This document shows, piece by piece, positions 3,148 through 15,679 of a DNA stretch of 15,679 bases; positions within the stretch are counted from its first letter, which is position 1; each line of letters begins with the position of its first letter. A model generated the notes under the pieces. That model made no database searches, was not told where the DNA came from, and saw nothing but the letters and a program-made list of their open reading frames with translations. Source of the DNA: a virus. Taxonomy: Duplodnaviria > Heunggongvirae > Uroviricota > Caudoviricetes. The stretch spans positions 1 to 15,679 of IMG/VR virus record IMGVR_UViG_2778261463_000010; one strand, given 5' to 3'. The position numbers and the translations under genes are program-made.

Positions 3148-3352
<205 letters not shown>

Positions 3353-4784: not shown

Positions 4785-5855
4785 TTATTTGATTTCAATT
4801 TTGTCCCACTCCCTGCCTCTGTCATCACGATACTGTGATGCCATGGTGTCCGACTTATGCCCGAGAAGATGTTGAGCAAATTTATCGCTTATCTGCTTCT
4901 CATAGAGTCTTGCAGACAAACTGCGCAACTCGTGAAAGGTTGGCGGATCCCCTTCGAAGGAGAGACCTGATGCTTTTCGTGCGCGCATAAAATACCTTGA
5001 TACTGTGCCGGATGAAAGCGGTTCACGACGAGTAGATGCAATTATGGTTTCTCCGCCAAGAATCTTTTTGCATTTATCAAGTGTTTCCTTCATTGATATC
5101 CCGAGAGCATCAACATGCAATGTTGTTGGGATGGCAATTTTTACGCCTGTTTTGCTTTGCTCGACATAAAGATATCCATCTACGATATCAGACCACTTCA
5201 TTTCGCATAAATCACCAACTCGCTGCCCGGTAACAACAGCCAGTTCCATTGCAAGTCTAAGCCAACATGGTGATGATTCTGCTGCTTGATAAATTTTCAG
5301 GTATTCGTCAGCCGTAAGTCTTGATCTCCTTACCTCTGATTTTGCAGCGCGAGTGGCTGCGACCGGGTTTGTTGTTATATGGCCTTCAGCCATAGCCTCT
5401 CGGAATGCATCGCTCAGTGTTGATCTGATTAACTTGGCTGATGCCGCCTTTCCCTCGTCTATGTATCCATTGAGCATTGCCGCAATTTCTTTTGTGGTGA
5501 TGTCTTCAAGTGGAGCATCAGGCAGACCCCTCCTTATTGCTTTAATTTTGCTCATGTAATTTATGAGTGTCTTCTGCTTGATTCCTCTGCTGGCCAGGAT
5601 TTTTTCGTAGCGATCAAGCCATGAATGTAACGTAACGGAATTATCACTGTTGATTCTCGCTGTCAGAGGCTTGTGTTTGTGTCCTGAAAATAACTCAATG
5701 TTGGCCTGTATAGCTTCAGTGATTGCGATTCGCCTGTCTCGGCCTAATCCAAACTCTTTACCCGTCCTTGGGTCCCTGTAGCAGTAATATCCATTGTTTC
5801 TTATATAAAGGTTAGGGGGTAAATCCCGGCGCTCATGACTTCGCCTTCTTCCCAT
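4785..5855 (-). CDS. int: Lambda-type tyrosine integrase Int (356 aa)
   Basis: Translation MGRRRSHERRDLPPNLYIRNNGYYCYRDPRTGKEF...REWDKIEIK is essentially the recalled lambda Int, with the catalytic C-terminal HxxR...Y region present. Confidence 0.97.
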   Translation of the reverse strand: MGRRRSHERRDLPPNLYIRNNGYYCYRDPRTGKEFGLGRDRRIAITEAIQANIELFSGHKHKPLTARINSDNSVTLHSWLDRYEKILASRGIKQKTLINYMSKIKAIRRGLPDAPLEDITTKEIAAMLNGYIDEGKAASAKLIRSTLSDAFREAMAEGHITTNPVAATRAAKSEVRRSRLTADEYLKIYQAAESSPCWLRLAMELAVVTGQRVGDLCEMKWSDIVDGYLYVEQSKTGVKIAIPTTLHVDALGISMKETLDKCKKILGGETIIASTRREPLSSGTVSRYFMRARKASGLSFEGDPPTFHELRSLSARLYEKQISDKFAQHLLGHKSDTMASQYRDDRGREWDKIEIK

Positions 5856-5949
5856 TTCTGATCCTCTTCAAAAGGCTACCTGTTACTGGTCGATTTAAGT
5901 CAACCTTTACCGCTGATTCGTGGAACAGATATTCTCTTCCATCCTTAAC
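5833..5949 (-). pseudogene. xis: 3' remnant of excisionase gene xis (about the last 38 codons); 5' half replaced
   Basis: Minus strand encodes ...VKDGREYLFHESAVKVDLNRPVTGGLLKRIRNGKKAKS*, overlapping the int start as in lambda. Reading upstream, an in-frame TAG occurs with no start codon, and the sequence diverges from lambda beyond about 5949. Confidence 0.8.
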
Positions 5950-6123
5950 GCAGATCGGATGATTACCGGTTCGCTACCAGGGAAGAACGGGAAGGAAAGG
6001 TGAGCACGAATCTGATTTTCAAGGAGTGTCGCCAGAGTGCCGCGATGAAGCGGATGTTGGCATTTTATCGCGGCAATTTTCAATAGACTATGTACATAAA
6101 AATATCATTTTTTTAATACATGT

Positions 6124-6315
6124 CTAATTATTGGACGAAATTGGTTTTTGCTTTGGTTTAGTTAGCCTAGCAATCAAGCCAGAGGCAATAATGATGATCC
6201 AAGCAATTTGATGCAATGCTACTCCAATATAAGAACCTTTATAGATAATAAAGGCATAGATCGCTAGAAACGAAATAAATATCCATAACGAAAGTTGATA
6301 AATTTTGGCGCGCAT
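6124..6315 (-). CDS. Hypothetical small membrane protein (63 aa, two predicted TM helices, basic C-terminus)
   Basis: ORF MRAKIYQLSLWIFISFLAIYAFIIYKGSYIGVALHQIAWIIIIASGLIARLTKPKQKPISSNN. Two hydrophobic stretches. No clear Shine-Dalgarno. Lies in the AT-rich island, divergent from the lipoprotein operon. Confidence 0.45.
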   Translation of the reverse strand: MRAKIYQLSLWIFISFLAIYAFIIYKGSYIGVALHQIAWIIIIASGLIARLTKPKQKPISSNN

Positions 6316-6571
6316 ATTTAATCCAATCAATCAGAAAGACGAGTAATCATAGAGGTACTATCACCCGGGTAACTATTGCTATTATGAACGGATAGGATAG
6401 AGGCTTCAATAACATATGCATCAAGTATGATGGAATATGTAGGTGAAAATGACTTGTGTCAAATTTGTGGAAATGAGTACCATGTTTCTCTGAAATTGAT
6501 GTCGTTAATGGCTAGTGATAGTGAACTTTTTTACTTTATAATTCCTTTGGTTATAACAATAAGGTAAATTT

Positions 6572-9260: not shown

Positions 9261-9644
9261 ATGCGTGATATTCAGATGGTTCTTGAGCGTTGGGGAGCGT
9301 GGGCGGCTAATAATCATGAAGATGTGACCTGGTCGTCCATTGCCGCCGGTTTTAAGGGATTAATTACTTCAAAAGTAAAATCTCGCCCGCAATGTTGTGA
9401 CGATGACGCGATGATCATTTGCGGGTGCATGGCCCGTCTGAAAAAGAACAACAGCGATTTGCACGATTTATTAGTAGATTATTATGTAGTCGGTATGACA
9501 TTCATGTCACTGGCAGGTAAGCATTGCTGCTCTGATGGTTATATCGGGAAAAGGTTACAGAAGGCTGAGGGTATAATTGAAGGGATGTTAATGGCATTAG
9601 ATATCCGGTTAGAGATGGATATCGTTGTTAATAACTCTAATTAA
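9261..9644 (+). CDS. quuD: Late-gene antiterminator Q (QuuD-like, 127 aa)
   Basis: ATG at 9261 with GGAG 9 nt upstream. Cys-rich zinc-binding-like region ([12 protein letters not shown]...HCC). Position immediately upstream of the late region. Confidence 0.85.
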
Positions 9645-9832: not shown

Positions 9833-10915
9833 TTAGAACTGGTAAACCATACCTACAGCAACGATATCATCGGTAGCAACGCCAGATGCTTTCGTGAAAT
9901 CGCTCTTATCAATCAGGTTGATTTTGTAATCAACAAAAGTGGACATATTTTTGTTGAAGTAATAGGTTGCACCTACATCAATATATTCAACCAGGTCCTG
10001 ATCACCCCACGCACCCAAGTCTTTTCCTTTAGATTGCAGGTAAGCAACGGACGGACGCAGACCGAAGTCGAACTGATATTGTGCAACTACTTCGAAGTTT
10101 TGTGCTTTGTTGGCAATATGGTTATTACCAAAAACAGTCATGTTCTGGGTTTCAGAATAGGTGGTAGCCAGATAGATGTTGTTCGCATCATATTTCAGAC
10201 CAGCTGCCCATACTTCAGCATTTTGACCAGATGCATTCAGGCTGTTGTTACCGTAGATAACCTGATTATTAGTGCGGTCAGATTTAGCATAGGTTGCACC
10301 TACACCGAATCCTTCATACTCATAAGTAGTGGAGAAACCGAAACCATCACCATTAGCTTCAGTTACGTCAGTGCGGTCATTTTTACCCTGATACTGAGCA
10401 GCAAAGTTCAGACCATCAACCAGACCAAAGAAGTCATTGTTACGATAAGTTGCAACACCTGTGGTGCGACCAGTCATGAATACATCTGTTTGGGTCCAGG
10501 TATCGCCACCGAATTCTGGCAGAACGTCGGTCCATGCACCAATATCGTATGCTACACCGTAGTTACGGCCATAATCGATGGAGCCGTAGTCACCGAATTT
10601 CAGGCCAGCGAAGGCAAGACGGGTTTTATCTTTGGAGGAACCTTGAGATTCAGCGCGGTTGCCTTTGAATTCATATTCCCACTGACCGAAACCAGTCAGT
10701 TGATCGTTGATTTGGGTTTCACCTTTGAAGCCAAGACGGGCATAAGTAGTATCACCATCATCTGCATCATTAGAGGAGAAGTAGTGCTTAGCATTAACTT
10801 TCCCGTACAGATCCAGCTTGTTACTGTCTTTATTATAAATTTCAGCTGCCTGAGCAGACATCGCCATCAGTACTGATGCAGCTACAGCAGAAATTGCCAC
10901 TGTTAATTTTTTCAT
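9833..10915 (-). CDS. nmpC: Prophage-encoded general porin of the NmpC/Lc/OmpD family (360 aa precursor), apparently intact
   Basis: Signal peptide [23 protein letters not shown], then [16 protein letters not shown]...; Gly/Tyr-rich beta-barrel pattern; C-terminal ...VGMVYQF. The ORF track's longer form starts at 10975. Confidence 0.93.
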
Positions 10916-11341
10916 CGTGAGCCCTTTTTTTGAACTATTATTAAAAAATGATGTCACTGCGCGATAAATATTCATCTAATCAATGTGATTATTTCAAGAT
11001 GTAAGTTTTGGTTTCTCATTTGATTTGTGAAGTAGATCTCTATTTTTATCTGAACTTTTTCTATCGAATCCTATTCATGGCTCTTGGCTGAATAAAAATA
11101 AATCTATTAGCCAATTTATATTAATGGCTGTTATTTATAAGCGCTCTATAATTTGAAGATTCAATTTAAACCAGCTAAAAATAACGCTGGAAATTATTTG
11201 TTGGTTATTTGTTGAGATTTGCTTATGTATTTGTAGTGGTGTTTTCAATACTCGGTAGCATTCTCGCAAATATCATTTAGTGGTTTACGTACGTAAAAAA
11301 TTGGTTATGCTGTTAAGAGTGGTTACTTCGTCACACAGCTT

Positions 11342-11375
11342 AAACCCGCCGTCGAGCGGGTTTTTCCATTTTTTG
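11342..11375 (+). terminator. Intrinsic terminator-like hairpin plus U-tract upstream of the lysis cassette (possible tR'-type site)
   Basis: Stem AAACCCGC/GCGGGTTT with loop CGTCGA, followed by TTTCCATTTTTTG. About 130 nt upstream of the holin start. Confidence 0.55.
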
Positions 11376-11502
11376 AGTCTCGATATTAGCTGATAACCCA
11401 ATACCTGAGTTATTCACTGACTCCGAGTCTGTTACGTTTCTGCTTTTTTGCGATACGTTGTATTCCCTCAATTTACACCCGCTTTGTCTGCGAGGTGGGG
11501 TT

Positions 11503-11718
11503 ATGAAATCCATGGATAAGTTAACAACGGGTGTCGCCTATGGCACCTCAGCAGGTAGTGCCGGTTACTGGTTTTTACAGCTGCTCGATAAAGTCACGCC
11601 CTCACAGTGGGCAGCAATAGGTGTGCTGGGTAGCCTGGTATTTGGCCTGCTGACGTACCTGACAAACCTTTATTTCAAGATTAAAGAAGATAAGCGCAAG
11701 GCTGCGAGAGGTGAATAA
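11503..11718 (+). CDS. essD: Class II holin (P21 S-type pinholin, EssD-like, 71 aa) with dual-start motif
   Basis: Translation [24 protein letters not shown]...[15 protein letters not shown] resembles recalled S21. Met1/Met4 dual start. GAGGTGGGG SD. Confidence 0.88.
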
Positions 11719-12215
11719 TGCCTCCATCATTACGAAAAGCCGTTGCTGCTGCTATTGGTGGCGGAGCAATTGCTATAGCATCAGTGTTAATTACTGGCCC
11801 AAGTGGTAACGATGGTCTGGAAGGTGTCAGCTACGTACCATACAAAGATATCGTTGGCGTATGGACTGTATGTCACGGACACACCGGAAAAGACATCATG
11901 CTCGGTAAAACGTATACCAAAGCAGAATGCAAAGCACTCTTGAATAAAGACCTTGCCACTGTCGCCAGACAAATTAACCCGTACATCAAAGTCGATATAC
12001 CGGAAACAACGCGCGGCGCTCTTTACTCATTCGTTTACAACGTGGGTGCTGGCAATTTCAGAACATCGACGCTTCTTCGCAAAATAAACCAGGGCGATAT
12101 CAAAGGCGCATGTGATCAGCTACGTCGCTGGACATATGCTGGCGGTAAGCAATGGAAAGGTCTCATGACTCGTCGTGAGATTGAGCGTGAAATCTGTTTG
12201 TGGGGTCAGCAATGA
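11718..12215 (+). CDS. rrrD: SAR endolysin (P21 R-type lysozyme, RrrD-like, 165 aa)
   Basis: N-terminal Gly/Ala-rich signal-anchor-release segment [20 protein letters not shown] followed by a T4-lysozyme-like catalytic region. Start overlaps the holin stop (TAATG). Confidence 0.93.
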
Positions 12216-12673
12216 ACAGAGTAACCGCGATTATCTCCGCTCTGGTTATCTGCATCATCGTCTACCTGTCATGGGCTGTTAATCATTACCGTGATAACGC
12301 CATTACCTACAAAGCCCAGCGCGACAAAAATGCCAGAGAACTGAAGCTGGCGAACGCGGCAATTACTGACATGCAGATGCGTCAGCGTGATGTTGCTGCG
12401 CTCGATGCAAAATACACGAAGGAGTTAGCTGATGCGAAAGCTGAAAATGATGCTCTGCGTGATGATGTTGCCGCTGGTCGTCGTCGGTTGCACATCAAAG
12501 CAGTCTGTCAGTCAGTGCGTGAAGCCACCACCGCCTCCGGCGTGGATAATGCAGCCTCCCCCCGACTGGCAGACACCGCTGAACGGGATTATTTCACCCT
12601 CAGAGAGAGGCTGATCACTATGCAAAAACAACTGGAAGGAACCCAGAAGTATATTAATGAGCAGTGCAGATAG
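12212..12673 (+). CDS. rzpD: Spanin inner-membrane subunit Rz (153 aa)
   Basis: N-terminal TM helix plus coiled-coil region. Near-identical to recalled lambda Rz. Start overlaps the endolysin stop. Confidence 0.93.
12432..12614 (+). CDS. rzoD: Spanin outer-membrane lipoprotein Rz1 (60 aa), embedded in Rz in the +1 frame
   Basis: Lipobox VVGC and proline-rich [13 protein letters not shown], entirely within Rz. Confidence 0.85.
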
Positions 12674-12704
12674 AGTTGCCCATATCGATGGGCAACTCAT
12701 GCAA

Positions 12705-12998
12705 TTATTGTGAGCAATACACACGCGCTTCCAGCGGAGTATAAATGCCTAAAGTAATAAAACCGAGCAATCCATTTACGAATGTTTGCTGGGTTTCTGT
12801 TTTAACAACATTTTCTGCGCCGCCACAAATTTTGGCTGCATCGACAGTTTTCTTCTGCCCAATTCCAGAAACGAAGAAATGATGGGTGATGGTTTCCTTT
12901 GGTGCTACTGCTGCCGGTTTGTTTTGAACAGTAAACGTCTGTTGAGCACATCCTGTAATAAGCAGGGCCAGCGCAGTAGCGAGTAGCATTTTTTTCAT
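12705..12998 (-). CDS. bor: Bor lipoprotein (serum-resistance family, 97 aa)
   Basis: Translation MKKMLLATALALLITGC... with lipobox ITGC. Matches recalled lambda Bor. Confidence 0.9.
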   Translation of the reverse strand: MKKMLLATALALLITGCAQQTFTVQNKPAAVAPKETITHHFFVSGIGQKKTVDAAKICGGAENVVKTETQQTFVNGLLGFITLGIYTPLEARVYCSQ

Positions 12999-13288
12999 GG
13001 TGTTATTCCCGATGCTTTTTGAAGTTCGCAGAATCGTATGTGTAGAAAATTAAACAAACCCTAAACAATGAGTTGAAATTTCATATTGTTAATATTTATT
13101 AATGTATGTCAGGTGCGATGAATCGTCATTGTATTCCCGGATTAACTATGTCCACAGCCCTGACGGGGAACTTCTCTGCGGGAGTGTCCGGGAATAATTA
13201 AAAACGATGCACACAGGGTTTAGCGCGTACACGTATTGCATTATGCCAACGCCCCGGTGCTGACACGGAAGAAACCGGACGTTATGAT

Positions 13289-13699
13289 TTAGCGTGGAAA
13301 GATTTGTGTAGTGTTCTGAATGCTCTCAGTAAATAGTAATGAATTATCAAAGGTATAGTAATATCTTTTATGTTCATGGATATTTGTAACCCATCGGAAA
13401 ACTCCTGCTTTAGCAAGATTTTCCCTGTATTGCTGAAATGTGATTTCTCTTGATTTCAACCTATCATAGGACGTTTCTATAAGATGCGTGTTTCTTGAGA
13501 ATTTAACATTTACAACCTTTTTAAGTCCTTTTATTAACACGGTGTTATCGTTTTCTAACACGATGTGAATATTATCTGTGGCTAGATAGTAAATATAATG
13601 TGAGACGTTGTGACGTTTTAGTTCAGAATAAAACAATTCACAGTTTAAATCTTTTCGCACTTGATCGAATATTTCTTTAAAAATGGCAACCTGAGCCAT
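13289..13699 (-). CDS. ybcV: YbcV-like protein (DUF1398, 136 aa)
   Basis: ORF conserved at this position in lambda and DLP12. The shorter start MAQVAIFKE is chosen; the ORF track extends to 13822. Confidence 0.75.
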
Positions 13700-13984
13700 T
13701 GGTAAAACCTTCCATGTGATACGAGGGCGCGTAGTTTGCATTATCGTTTTTATCGTTTCAATCTGGTCTGACCTCTTTGTGTTTTGTTGATGATTTATGT
13801 CAAATATTAGGAATGTTTTCACTTAATAGTATTGGTTGCGTAACAAAGTGCGGTCCTGCTGGCATTCTGGAGGGAAATACAACCGACAGATGTATGTAAG
13901 GCCAACGTGCTCAAATCTTCATACAGAAAGATTTGAAGTAATATTTTAACCGCTAGATGAAGAGCAAGCGCATGGAGCGACAAA

Positions 13985-14191
13985 ATGAATAAAGAACAAT
14001 CTGCTGATGATCCCTCCGTGGATCTGATTCGTGTAAAAAATATGCTTAATAGCACCATTTCTATGAGTTACCCTGATGTTGTAATTGCATGTATAGAACA
14101 TAAGGTGTCTCTGGAAGCATTCAGAGCAATTGAGGCAGCGTTGGTGAAGCACGATAATAATATGAAGGATTATTCCCTGGTGGTTGACTGA
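13985..14191 (+). CDS. ybcW: YbcW-like small protein (68 aa)
   Basis: [24 protein letters not shown]... at the conserved position between ybcV and ylcI. Confidence 0.7.
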
Positions 14192-14355
14192 TCACCATAA
14201 CTGCTAATCATTCAAACTATTTAGCCTGTGACAGAGCCAACACGCAGTCTGTCACTGTCAGGAAAGTGGTAAAACTGCAACTCAATTACTGCAATGCCCT
14301 CGTAATTAAGTGAATTTACAATATCGTCCTGTTCGGAGGGAAGAACGCGGGATGT

Positions 14356-14550
14356 TCATTCTTCATCACTTTTAATTGATGTATATGCTCTCTTTTCTGA
14401 CGTTAGTCTCCGACGGCAGGCTTCAATGACCCAGGCTGAGAAATTCCCGGACCCTTTTTGCTCAAGAGCGATGTTAATTTGTTCAATCATTTGGTTAGGA
14501 AAGCGGATGTTGCGGGTTGTTGTTCTGCGGGTTCTGTTCTTCGTTGACAT
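14356..14550 (-). CDS. ylcI: YlcI-like protein (DUF3950, 64 aa)
   Basis: Basic N-terminus MSTKNRTRRTTTRNIRF. Conserved just upstream of cos in lambda-like genomes. Confidence 0.72.
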   Translation of the reverse strand: MSTKNRTRRTTTRNIRFPNQMIEQINIALEQKGSGNFSAWVIEACRRRLTSEKRAYTSIKSDEE

Positions 14551-14699
14551 GAGGTTGCCCCGTATTCAGTGTCGCTGATTTGTATTGTCTGAAGTTGTTT
14601 TTACGTTAAGTTGATGCAGATCAATTAATACGATACCTGCGTCATAATTGATTATTTGACGTGGTTTGATGGCGTAGATGCACGTTGTGACATGTAGAT

Positions 14700-14830
14700 G
14701 ATAATTATTATCATTTTGCGGGTCCTTTCCGGCATGTGGACCCGTTACGGGGCGTCGACCTCGCGGTTTTTCGCTATTTATGAGATTTTTTGAGGGGGTG
14801 GTTGTTGTTTAATTGTTTGGTATATCTAAT
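14700..14830. other. cos: cos region (cosQ/cosN/cosB); cosN-like site near 14750-14761
   Basis: GGGGCGTCGACCTCGCGGTTTTTCGCTATTTATGA closely resembles the recalled lambda cohesive-end region GGGCGGCGACCTCGCGGGTTTTCGCTATTTATGA. Located about 220 nt upstream of the Nu1-like start. Confidence 0.7.
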
Positions 14831-14977
14831 TGATAAGTAAGGTAAAAATAAAATAAATACAACAACCTTACGGTGTATTTTGATGTCATTAATGTGAAAA
14901 AATTCAATGATATCAAATGGTTTTGTAAAAACACATGGTTGTTGTATCGCTTTTTATCGATGACTTATGGAGAGGAG

Positions 14978-15484
14978 ATGGCCTTTTTATTGAATAAAAG
15001 TGATATGGCCTCCTCCATCGGTATCTCTGTTCAGGCATTTGATAAATGGGGCGTTCCTCCTGTCGAGCGTCGGGGGAGGGAAGTTTTTTATGACGTTAAA
15101 ACTGTACTGGAGATAGATCGCGAGCGGCGACAACACAATCATAGAACACCTGATGACGGGGGCGATCTGGAGGAAAGGCTGCTTCGGGCCAGAGCTGAAC
15201 TGACAGAAGAACAGGCCGTAGCTCAAAAACTTAAAAATCAGGTAACCGAAGGTAAGCTCATCGATTCAGACTTCTGCGTTTTCGCCCTCAGCAAGCTGGC
15301 GATGGCATTGTCCAGTACGCTTGATTCTATTCCGTTATCCATGCAGCGACAGTTCCCGGATTTAACGCCACGTCATCTTGACCATCTGAAAACCCTTATT
15401 GCGAAGGGCGCAAATCAGTGTGCGCGGGCAGGGGATAAATTACCGGATTTGCTGGATGAATATATCAGAGCAACAACTGAATAA
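14978..15484 (+). CDS. nohD: Terminase small subunit (Nu1/NohD-like); start codon uncertain
   Basis: Aligns with lambda Nu1: the segment NKSDMASSIGISVQAFDKW against NKKQLADIFGASIRTIQNW, and similar C-terminus. ATG 14978 has GGAGAGGAG immediately upstream; alternatives are TTG 14939, ATG 14960 or GTG 14873. Confidence 0.8.
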   Translation: MAFLLNKSDMASSIGISVQAFDKWGVPPVERRGREVFYDVKTVLEIDRERRQHNHRTPDDGGDLEERLLRARAELTEEQAVAQKLKNQVTEGKLIDSDFCVFALSKLAMALSSTLDSIPLSMQRQFPDLTPRHLDHLKTLIAKGANQCARAGDKLPDLLDEYIRATTE

Positions 15485-15488
15485 TCTG

Positions 15489-15679
15489 ATGGCTGCCGTT
15501 TCGGTTGCGCTGCAGCCTCTGGTCAGGGTTGTACCGATGACGGCAGTTGAATGGGCTGACCAGTATTATTATCTGCCGAAAGAATCCTCATACGGTGACG
15601 GCGAATGGAAAACGCTGCCGTTCCAGATCGCCATCATGAACAGTATGGGGAATGATCAGGTCCGCACTGTTAATCTGAT
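15489..15679 (+). CDS. A: Terminase large subunit (gpA-like), N-terminal fragment; continues beyond the window
   Basis: Translation MAAVSVALQPLVRVVPMTAVEWADQYYYLPKESSYGDGEWKTLPFQIAIMNSMG resembles the recalled lambda gpA N-terminus (TAVEWADANYYLPKES...). Confidence 0.88.
   Translation, partial: MAAVSVALQPLVRVVPMTAVEWADQYYYLPKESSYGDGEWKTLPFQIAIMNSMGNDQVRTVNL

Follow-up and report, generated by a model that had tools for sequence, protein, structure and literature searches.

The 15,679-nt stretch of viral DNA analysed here, which as a whole we refer to as the window, carries at positions 11503-12673 a compact set of lysis genes that raises two questions, namely whether these genes are a mosaic of phage 21 and lambda components and whether they could still function despite lying in a defective prophage. 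A sequence-only reading of the window had proposed that a phage 21-type holin and endolysin are fused to lambda-type spanin genes and that the resulting cassette is complete. We aligned the cassette with the genomes of phage 21 (OL657228), phage 434, lambda, the K-12 prophage DLP12 and two environmental lambdoid phages. The explanation that we hold with high confidence is that the cassette is an intact copy of the canonical late lysis operon of the phage 21/434/DLP12 type, carried by a defective lambdoid prophage at att-lambda.

Gene organization of the lysis cassette

Inspection of the ORFs and of the sequence itself revealed four intact, overlapping reading frames in the interval 11503-12673, all on the plus strand and matching, to the base, the coordinates and anatomy that had been given for them. 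The first gene (11503-11718) encodes a class II holin of the S21 type, the full-length product of which, the antipinholin form, has 71 residues and starts with MKSM; it begins with the ATG at 11503 and ends with the TAA at 11716-11718. Within this gene, the M1-K2-S3-M4 motif, which can be seen directly, places a second start at Met4 for the 68-residue pinholin form (11512-11718). Next come the gene for a signal-anchor-release (SAR) endolysin, a GH24 lysozyme of the R21/RrrD type (165 residues; 11718-12215), and the gene for the i-spanin Rz (153 residues; 12212-12673), which has an N-terminal transmembrane domain (TMD) and a periplasmic, mostly helical domain. The fourth gene (12432-12614) encodes the o-spanin Rz1, an outer-membrane lipoprotein of 60 residues. 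The expected overlaps were found at all junctions: holin and endolysin meet in the sequence TAATG, in which the endolysin ATG and the holin stop codon share one base; the endolysin TGA is overlapped by the Rz ATG in the sequence ATGA; and Rz1 lies entirely inside the Rz gene in the +1 frame relative to Rz. At 11492-11501 on the same strand are tandem Shine-Dalgarno-like sequences (GAGGT and GGGGT) for the two holin starts, which correspond in position to the pair of ribosome binding sites that the phage 434 annotation gives for S71 and S68. Across the ~1.2 kb of the cassette, including the overlapping gene pair, there are no frameshifts, stops or motif losses. With all four Pfam matches well over the gathering scores, the pattern is far beyond chance.

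The pinholin and the SAR endolysin

The holin matched the Pfam family PF04971 ('P21 holin S') with an E-value of 2e-35 and 121 bits, against a cut-off of 26, and covered 63 of the 64 profile positions. In pairwise alignments, it was identical in 71 of 71 residues to the holins of phage 434, K-12 (EssD), ev207 and Turner, and it shared 61 of 71 residues with S21 (86% at the amino acid level and 76% at the nucleotide level). The ten differences from S21 are mostly conservative (L/I, K/R, T/S and F/L) and also comprise L27W and K30Q. Judged by its sequence, the window holin has the dual-start motif, from which two products are predicted, a short holin and an antiholin that is longer and has an additional basic residue; for phages 21 and 434, separate coding sequences for the S71 antiholin and the S68 holin are annotated at the same relative positions as the two starts in the window. 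TMD1 (residues 10-27) consists to 56% of Gly, Ala, Ser and Thr, and its mean Kyte-Doolittle value is never >1.0, i.e. it is weakly hydrophobic and SAR-like. TMD2 (residues 36-58) is strongly hydrophobic and contains G40, S44 and G48; the G40xxxS44xxxG48 face of pinholin TMD2 was reportedly identified as significant by Pang et al. in 2009.

We also folded the RNA of the holin initiation region (11470-11545) and of the corresponding regions in phage 21 and K-12, in search of a conserved structure able to set the S71:S68 ratio. The fold energies were no better than those of shuffled sequences (z from about -0.7 to -0.9), and the window is predicted to fold differently from phage 21.

The endolysin matched the phage lysozyme family PF00959 (E-value 8e-46, 155.8 bits) and is identical to R21 in 163 of 165 residues (98.8%), the differences being V40I and T98M. 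It differs from RrrD and from the R protein of phage 434 likewise at two of 165 positions (V40I and I159V), and its best matches in the PDB are 4ZPU (RrrD) and 3HDE/3HDF (R21), with 163 of 165 identical residues for both 3HDE and 4ZPU. E-X8-D-X5-T is the catalytic triad motif of these enzymes (PMC9239132), and Glu35 of R21 has been named as catalytic (PMC6024848); in the window endolysin, the triad E35-X8-D44-X5-T50 is present with exact spacing. Residues 8-26 form a SAR segment with 63% Gly, Ala, Ser and Thr that is preceded by the basic residues R6-K7, and the entire stretch of residues 1-39, which includes both of these elements, is identical to that of R21. The N-terminus of the endolysin is thus, as far as sequence can tell, a predicted uncleaved signal-anchor. 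The assignment of holin and endolysin to the P21 type is borne out by the identities to S21 and R21, and the Gly/Ala-rich SAR segment that had been recognized earlier is confirmed by the composition of residues 8-26. The middle of R shows 10-15 differences from every reference.

The spanins Rz and Rz1

Rz matched PF03245 (E-value 3e-54, 183 bits) and Rz1 matched PF06085 (E-value 3e-20, 72 bits). Rz is identical to the lambda protein in 151 of 153 residues (98.7%), to that of phage 21 in 149 (97.4%) and to that of ev207 in 152, and its gene has 99.1% nucleotide identity to both lambda and phage 21. Rz1 is identical to its counterparts in phage 21 and ev207 in all 60 residues and to lambda Rz1 in 59 of 60 (98.3%), so the description of this gene pair as lambda-like was correct. 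Rz has a hydrophobic TMD at residues 4-24 and cysteines at positions 99 and 152. Rz1 has the lipobox V-V-G-C20, which fits the lipobox consensus [LVI][ASTVI][GAS]C, a further cysteine at position 29, and a Pro-rich mature part. C99 and C152 of Rz and C29 of Rz1 are the periplasmic cysteines for intermolecular disulfides, a requirement for which has been described (PMC6139136). The pair has the make-up of an embedded two-component spanin, with an i-spanin supported by its TMD and Pfam match, an o-spanin with a lipobox encoded inside Rz, and all three cysteines in place.

Intactness of the cassette

The claim that the cassette is potentially functional would be undermined by inactivating substitutions in the endolysin catalytic residues or in the TM domains of the holin. 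The alignments to S21, R21 and the lambda spanins contain no such substitutions. We considered two further residues as candidates for inactivation. V40 of the endolysin sits in the E35-D44 loop and is Ile in every reference that we compared directly; distant solved GH24 structures have Thr or Asn there. Y18 of Rz sits in the TMD, at a position that is Cys, Ser or Gly in the directly compared references, viable phages among them. Among 50,697 phage records searched, none was 100% identical to the window endolysin and none was 100% identical to the window Rz. Because position 40 varies among GH24 homologues and position 18 of Rz varies in viable phages, we judge it unlikely that either residue is inactivating, and both changes are probably tolerated. 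Taken at the level of sequence, the cassette is probably lysis-competent if transcribed.

Compared with phage 21, S differs at 33 synonymous and 10 non-synonymous codons and R at 13 and 2, respectively; the four differences in Rz are all non-synonymous. The mostly synonymous changes in S and R are consistent with past purifying selection, which may have acted in active phages.

Origin of the R/Rz junction

The proposed fusion of P21-type and lambda-type genes stands in one respect and fails in another. Homology to lambda DNA sets in precisely with the Rz ATG (12212) and continues with 99.4% identity to 14732, essentially to cos; to the left of 12212 there is no DNA match to lambda. The S and R of the window are unrelated to their lambda counterparts, which are a holin of the canonical large-hole type and a soluble transglycosylase, respectively (~20% identity in a forced global alignment). 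In this sense, a boundary does coincide with the R/Rz junction. Phage 21 itself, however, carries lambda-type Rz/Rz1 and aligns unbroken across this junction, with a single HSP spanning 11502-13055. In agreement with this alignment, a published strain table gives identities of 96% and 98% between the RzRz1 of lambda and that of phage 21 (PMC12642591). Because phage 21 carries the same lambda-type Rz/Rz1, the combination of P21-type S and R with lambda-type Rz/Rz1 is the canonical phage 21 cassette.

We weighed against this the reading implied by the word mosaic, i.e. that a new chimera arose in this prophage by recombination of a phage 21-like with a lambda-like phage at the R/Rz boundary. The onset of lambda homology exactly at 12212 is what such an event would leave behind, and so is the lambda allele of the DNA from bor rightward: bor is 100% and the DUF1398 gene 99.6% identical to lambda at the nucleotide level, while in phage 21, 434, ev207 and Turner this DNA is 93.5% identical or absent. 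Yet the junction between S/R and Rz is common to phage 21, 434, DLP12, ev207, Turner and thousands of E. coli genomes and was not created here, and the Rz gene in the window is no nearer to lambda than to phage 21. We therefore regard a chimera newly formed at this junction, a reading already refuted by the comparison with phage 21, as exceedingly improbable. Because bor and the DUF1398 gene are lambda-like rather than 21/434-like, a right arm of the lambda type must have taken part in a local exchange at some position rightward of Rz. The bor gene (12705-12998, minus strand; PF06291, 2e-30), which encodes a serum-resistance lipoprotein identical to lambda Bor in 97 of 97 residues, is a neighbouring moron rather than a lysis gene and shows that the lambda-identical segment continues here.

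By sequence comparison, the S21-R21-Rz-Rz1-bor block is one standard, widely distributed module and no new chimera, and the R/Rz junction is an old, shared module boundary that lies exactly at the overlap of the R stop and the Rz start and is found in phage 21 too. On a finer scale, the window S and the region upstream of it match ev207 and Turner (100% and 99% at the nucleotide level, respectively), and the DNA from bor rightward is the lambda allele rather than the 21/434 allele; patchwork of this kind, as read from these alignments, is usual for lambdoid phages.

Distribution and closest relatives

A 1351-bp block was covered to at least 80% in 2710 of 5426 complete E. coli genomes, i.e. 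in about half of them. Among the matches listed, it was 100% identical in at least 14 E. coli genomes and 96-99% identical at the nucleotide level in 21 phage records; the identical 1351 bp occur in strains from crow, opossum, pig, chicken and human. Phages with the block include 434, ev207, ev243, Turner, PhiR phages and mEp332. The viable phages 434, ev207, ev243, Turner, PhiR34_1 and mEp332 share the block with 96.5-99.0% nucleotide identity, and 434, ev207 and Turner also share the Q-porin-S arrangement of the window; these six differ from the window in having complete phage genomes and, from bor onward, the other allele (93.5% at the nucleotide level).

Phage 21 (OL657228, 39866-41036) has the same four genes in the same order, with the same lengths (71, 165, 153 and 60 residues), overlaps and MKSM dual start and with bor downstream, but has tRNA genes (tRNA-Asn and tRNA-Thr) upstream, where the window has a porin gene; a tRNA scan found no tRNA genes in the window. 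DLP12 of K-12 (essD-rrrD(ybcS)-rzpD-rzoD) resembles the window in its proteins (holin 100%, R 98.8%, Rz 96.1% and Rz1 98.3%) as well as in the flanking quuD, nmpC-type porin gene, bor, ybcV, ybcW and ylcI. It differs in that the porin gene is interrupted by IS5 in K-12 and intact in the window, that residue 34 of Rz1 is R in DLP12 and P in the window, and that identity falls to 91.6% in the intergenic stretch immediately before S.

Prophage context and expression signals

The prophage occupies the att-lambda region and is distinct from DLP12: it adjoins ybhC and has a lambda-type integrase gene with an arm-binding domain at 4785-5855. The integration site of DLP12 we take to be argU. DLP12 has been described at 12 min (PMC7918800). 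PGAP names the E. coli copies of the cassette essD-rrrD-rzpD; at this locus, which is not DLP12, such automated gene names are homology labels. The late region of the window is DLP12-like but belongs to another prophage.

The prophage had been called defective, and it is. In the closest genomes, a ren fragment lies directly next to exo, and none of N, cI, cro, O and P is therefore left. A further deletion of 4.25 kb, from mid-xis to the end of exo, is specific to the window. The nin-region genes ybcN, ninE, ybcO, rusA and ylcG are intact, as is a gene for a QuuD-like late antiterminator of the Q type (9261-9644, plus strand; PF06530 Phage_antitermQ, 3.5e-53), which is annotated as quuD in the near-identical strain FDAARGOS_1248. 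By analogy with lambdoid phages, Q is the presumed activator of late transcription reading through to the lysis genes. Between Q and S lies an intact porin gene of the OmpC/NmpC/Lc type in antisense orientation. A consensus scan also identified a terminator-like GC hairpin followed by a T-run at 11342-11373 on the plus strand, ~130 nt upstream of the holin gene, which may act as a barrier to be passed by Q-modified RNA polymerase. In a sigma-70 scan of the DNA from Q to S, no match was convincing as a late promoter; matches were fewer than in shuffled sequences, and none lay at a plausible pR' position. The only match in an Rfam scan was a REP-type naRNA4 element far from the cassette. Expression in the source strain is uncertain because the cascade that switches on Q is deleted.

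Predicted mechanism of lysis

The mechanism of lysis by a pinholin and a SAR endolysin has been described (PMC6116005, PMC12642591, PMC9239132), and based on near-identity to experimentally studied proteins (PMC6116005, PMC12642591, PMC9239132, PMC6139136) we infer how the window cassette would act. Q-dependent late transcription would cross the antisense porin gene and the terminator-like hairpin and continue into S, R and Rz/Rz1. The holin gene would give S71 from Met1, the antipinholin, and S68 from Met4, the pinholin, with S71 opposing S68. S68 would build up in the inner membrane and then trigger, upon which the weakly hydrophobic TMD1 would exit the bilayer and TMD2, through its G40/S44/G48 face, would form nanometre-scale pinholes that collapse the proton motive force. 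The endolysin would have been exported beforehand by the Sec system and kept inactive by its Gly/Ala-rich SAR anchor; depolarisation would free it to the periplasm, where it would refold, with E35-D44-T50 becoming the active muramidase site, and degrade the murein. Finally, Rz in the inner membrane and the lipoprotein Rz1 in the outer membrane, joined via disulfide-bonded homodimers (C99 and C152 in Rz; C29 in Rz1), would form a complex that fuses the inner and outer membranes and thereby completes lysis.

Fate of the cassette in the defective prophage

With N, cI, cro, O and P lost, Q can no longer be switched on by the normal cascade, and expression of the operon may be weak or absent. This raises the question of why it is intact, and here we considered two readings in addition to that of a canonical operon copy. 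One is that the operon is a domesticated host module, the low-level expression of which aids the cell in murein turnover, control of outer-membrane vesicle (OMV) production or biofilm formation; this would be an added role and involves no alternative biochemistry. The lysis operon of DLP12 in K-12, to which that of the window is nearly identical, is transcribed at a basal level, its plasmid-borne copy causes a lytic phenotype in a deletion strain, its deletion raises OMV production, and control by Q, RpoE and Hha has been reported (PMC7918800). In the window, all four frames have stayed intact despite the deleted immunity and replication region, the identical block is found in strains from diverse hosts, and the changes in S and R are mostly synonymous, all of which would fit a benefit to the host. 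However, intactness may equally result from recent acquisition or repeated gene conversion, with active lambdoid phages carrying the block at 96-99% identity, and the K-12 evidence concerns a different prophage, at argU. Moreover, each of the four codon differences between the Rz genes of the window and phage 21 is non-synonymous, which is unlike strong constraint, albeit with tiny numbers. On balance, we consider domestication possible but doubtful.

The other reading is that the operon is a silent relic, which is intact for want of time, is never expressed and is starting to drift. The loss of the early genes together with the window-specific xis-to-exo deletion points in this direction, as do the terminator-like hairpin upstream of S, the lack of a recognisable sigma-70 promoter between Q and S, and the lineage-specific non-synonymous changes giving V40 in R and Y18 in Rz, which were matched by no phage record. 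Against it stand the intact Q gene, the transcription of the equivalent K-12 operon (PMC7918800), and ~1.2 kb of coding sequence in which nothing has yet been disrupted. We judge a relic of this kind to be unlikely. A more specific proposal is that the operon has been retained by host selection in the att-lambda remnant, independently of DLP12 at argU, as a low-level module for murein turnover or vesiculation in which the V40 and Y18 alleles attenuate lethality; we offer it as speculation and regard it as quite improbable.

Discussion

We conclude that the cassette is an already known, ordinary module, i.e. a textbook system of pinholin, SAR endolysin and spanins, the proteins of which are identical or nearly so to those on which the mechanism of lysis was worked out. 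What appeared as a mosaic of P21 and lambda is the native architecture of phage 21 and of a module that about half of the complete E. coli genomes carry. The main value of the finding is correct annotation. Beyond that, the window provides a further case of a defective prophage that keeps a complete lysis operon, lethal if expressed, and it thereby bears on prophage domestication and on work on OMVs.

Mosaic right arm and lineage-specific residues of the lysis cassette

From Rz, the i-spanin gene, to cos (positions 12212-14732 of the window), the sequence shares 99.4% identity with lambda itself, and this lambda-like segment takes in bor, a DUF1398 gene (ybcV/lambdap78-like), and a DUF3950 gene. 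Past ~14790 (14790-15679), the similarity to lambda gives way to another version of the Nu1-type small terminase gene (14873-15484), which is 99% identical to that of other E. coli prophages and unlike nohD of DLP12, the cryptic K-12 prophage with lysis genes of the same type. Therefore, another mosaic joint lies close to cos.

Within the lysis cassette, two residues are lineage-specific, i.e. V40 of the endolysin (codon 40, 11835-11837) and Y18 of Rz (codon 18, 12263-12265). Both are present in 14 listed E. coli genomes with a 100% identical cassette, and none of the 50,697 phage records searched for endolysin and Rz identity contained an exact match to either residue. Among near-identical Rz proteins, position 18 is unusually variable, being occupied by C, S, G, or Y. 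Between Rz of the window and that of the lambdoid phage 21, all four nucleotide differences are non-synonymous and none is synonymous (Y18C, K45T, A50V, and M54I); all four lie 5' of the overlap with the embedded o-spanin gene Rz1 (that is, in 12212-12431), and these numbers are too small for interpretation.

Left edge and integrase region

At the left edge, positions 1-76 are foreign to ybhI. We take this segment to be the outside end of IS10 in reverse complement (CTGATGAATCCCCTAATGATTTTGGTAAAAATC...), and in some E. coli genomes it is multi-copy, with up to 40 or more sites in a single record. The source strain therefore seems to carry an IS10/Tn10 insertion within ybhI. Further inward, BLAST self-matches of the window revealed an inverted pair of ~100 nt in the ybhJ-ybhC intergenic region, and Rfam reported the REP-derived nucleoid-associated RNA naRNA4 between these two genes (3229-3299, + strand; 60.7 bits versus a gathering score of 59.5).

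In the region covered by 4785-5949 and 5946-6570, a lambda-type integrase gene adjoins ybhC at att-lambda, and xis is truncated. A 4.25-kb deletion from xis to exo is present only in the window when compared with the near-identical E. coli strain FDAARGOS_1248 and 19 other genomes; N, cI, cro, O, and P genes are found neither in the window nor in the version without this deletion.

Region between Q and the holin gene

On the coding strand, ~130 nt 5' of the holin start, a GC hairpin and the T-run after it resemble a terminator (11342-11373, + strand) and may be a site antiterminated by Q, the late antiterminator. In the lambdoid phages ev207 and Turner, two tiny annotated "hypothetical" ORFs overlap this hairpin and are probably spurious.

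Also between Q and the holin gene, in antisense orientation, is an intact porin gene of the OmpC/NmpC/Lc type (9833-10975, - strand; Porin_1 at 3.7e-153). The same gene is split by IS5 in DLP12 of K-12 and in phage 434B, whereas the copy in the window is intact. This porin gene is a prophage-borne moron, and it could change outer-membrane permeability or phage receptor display.
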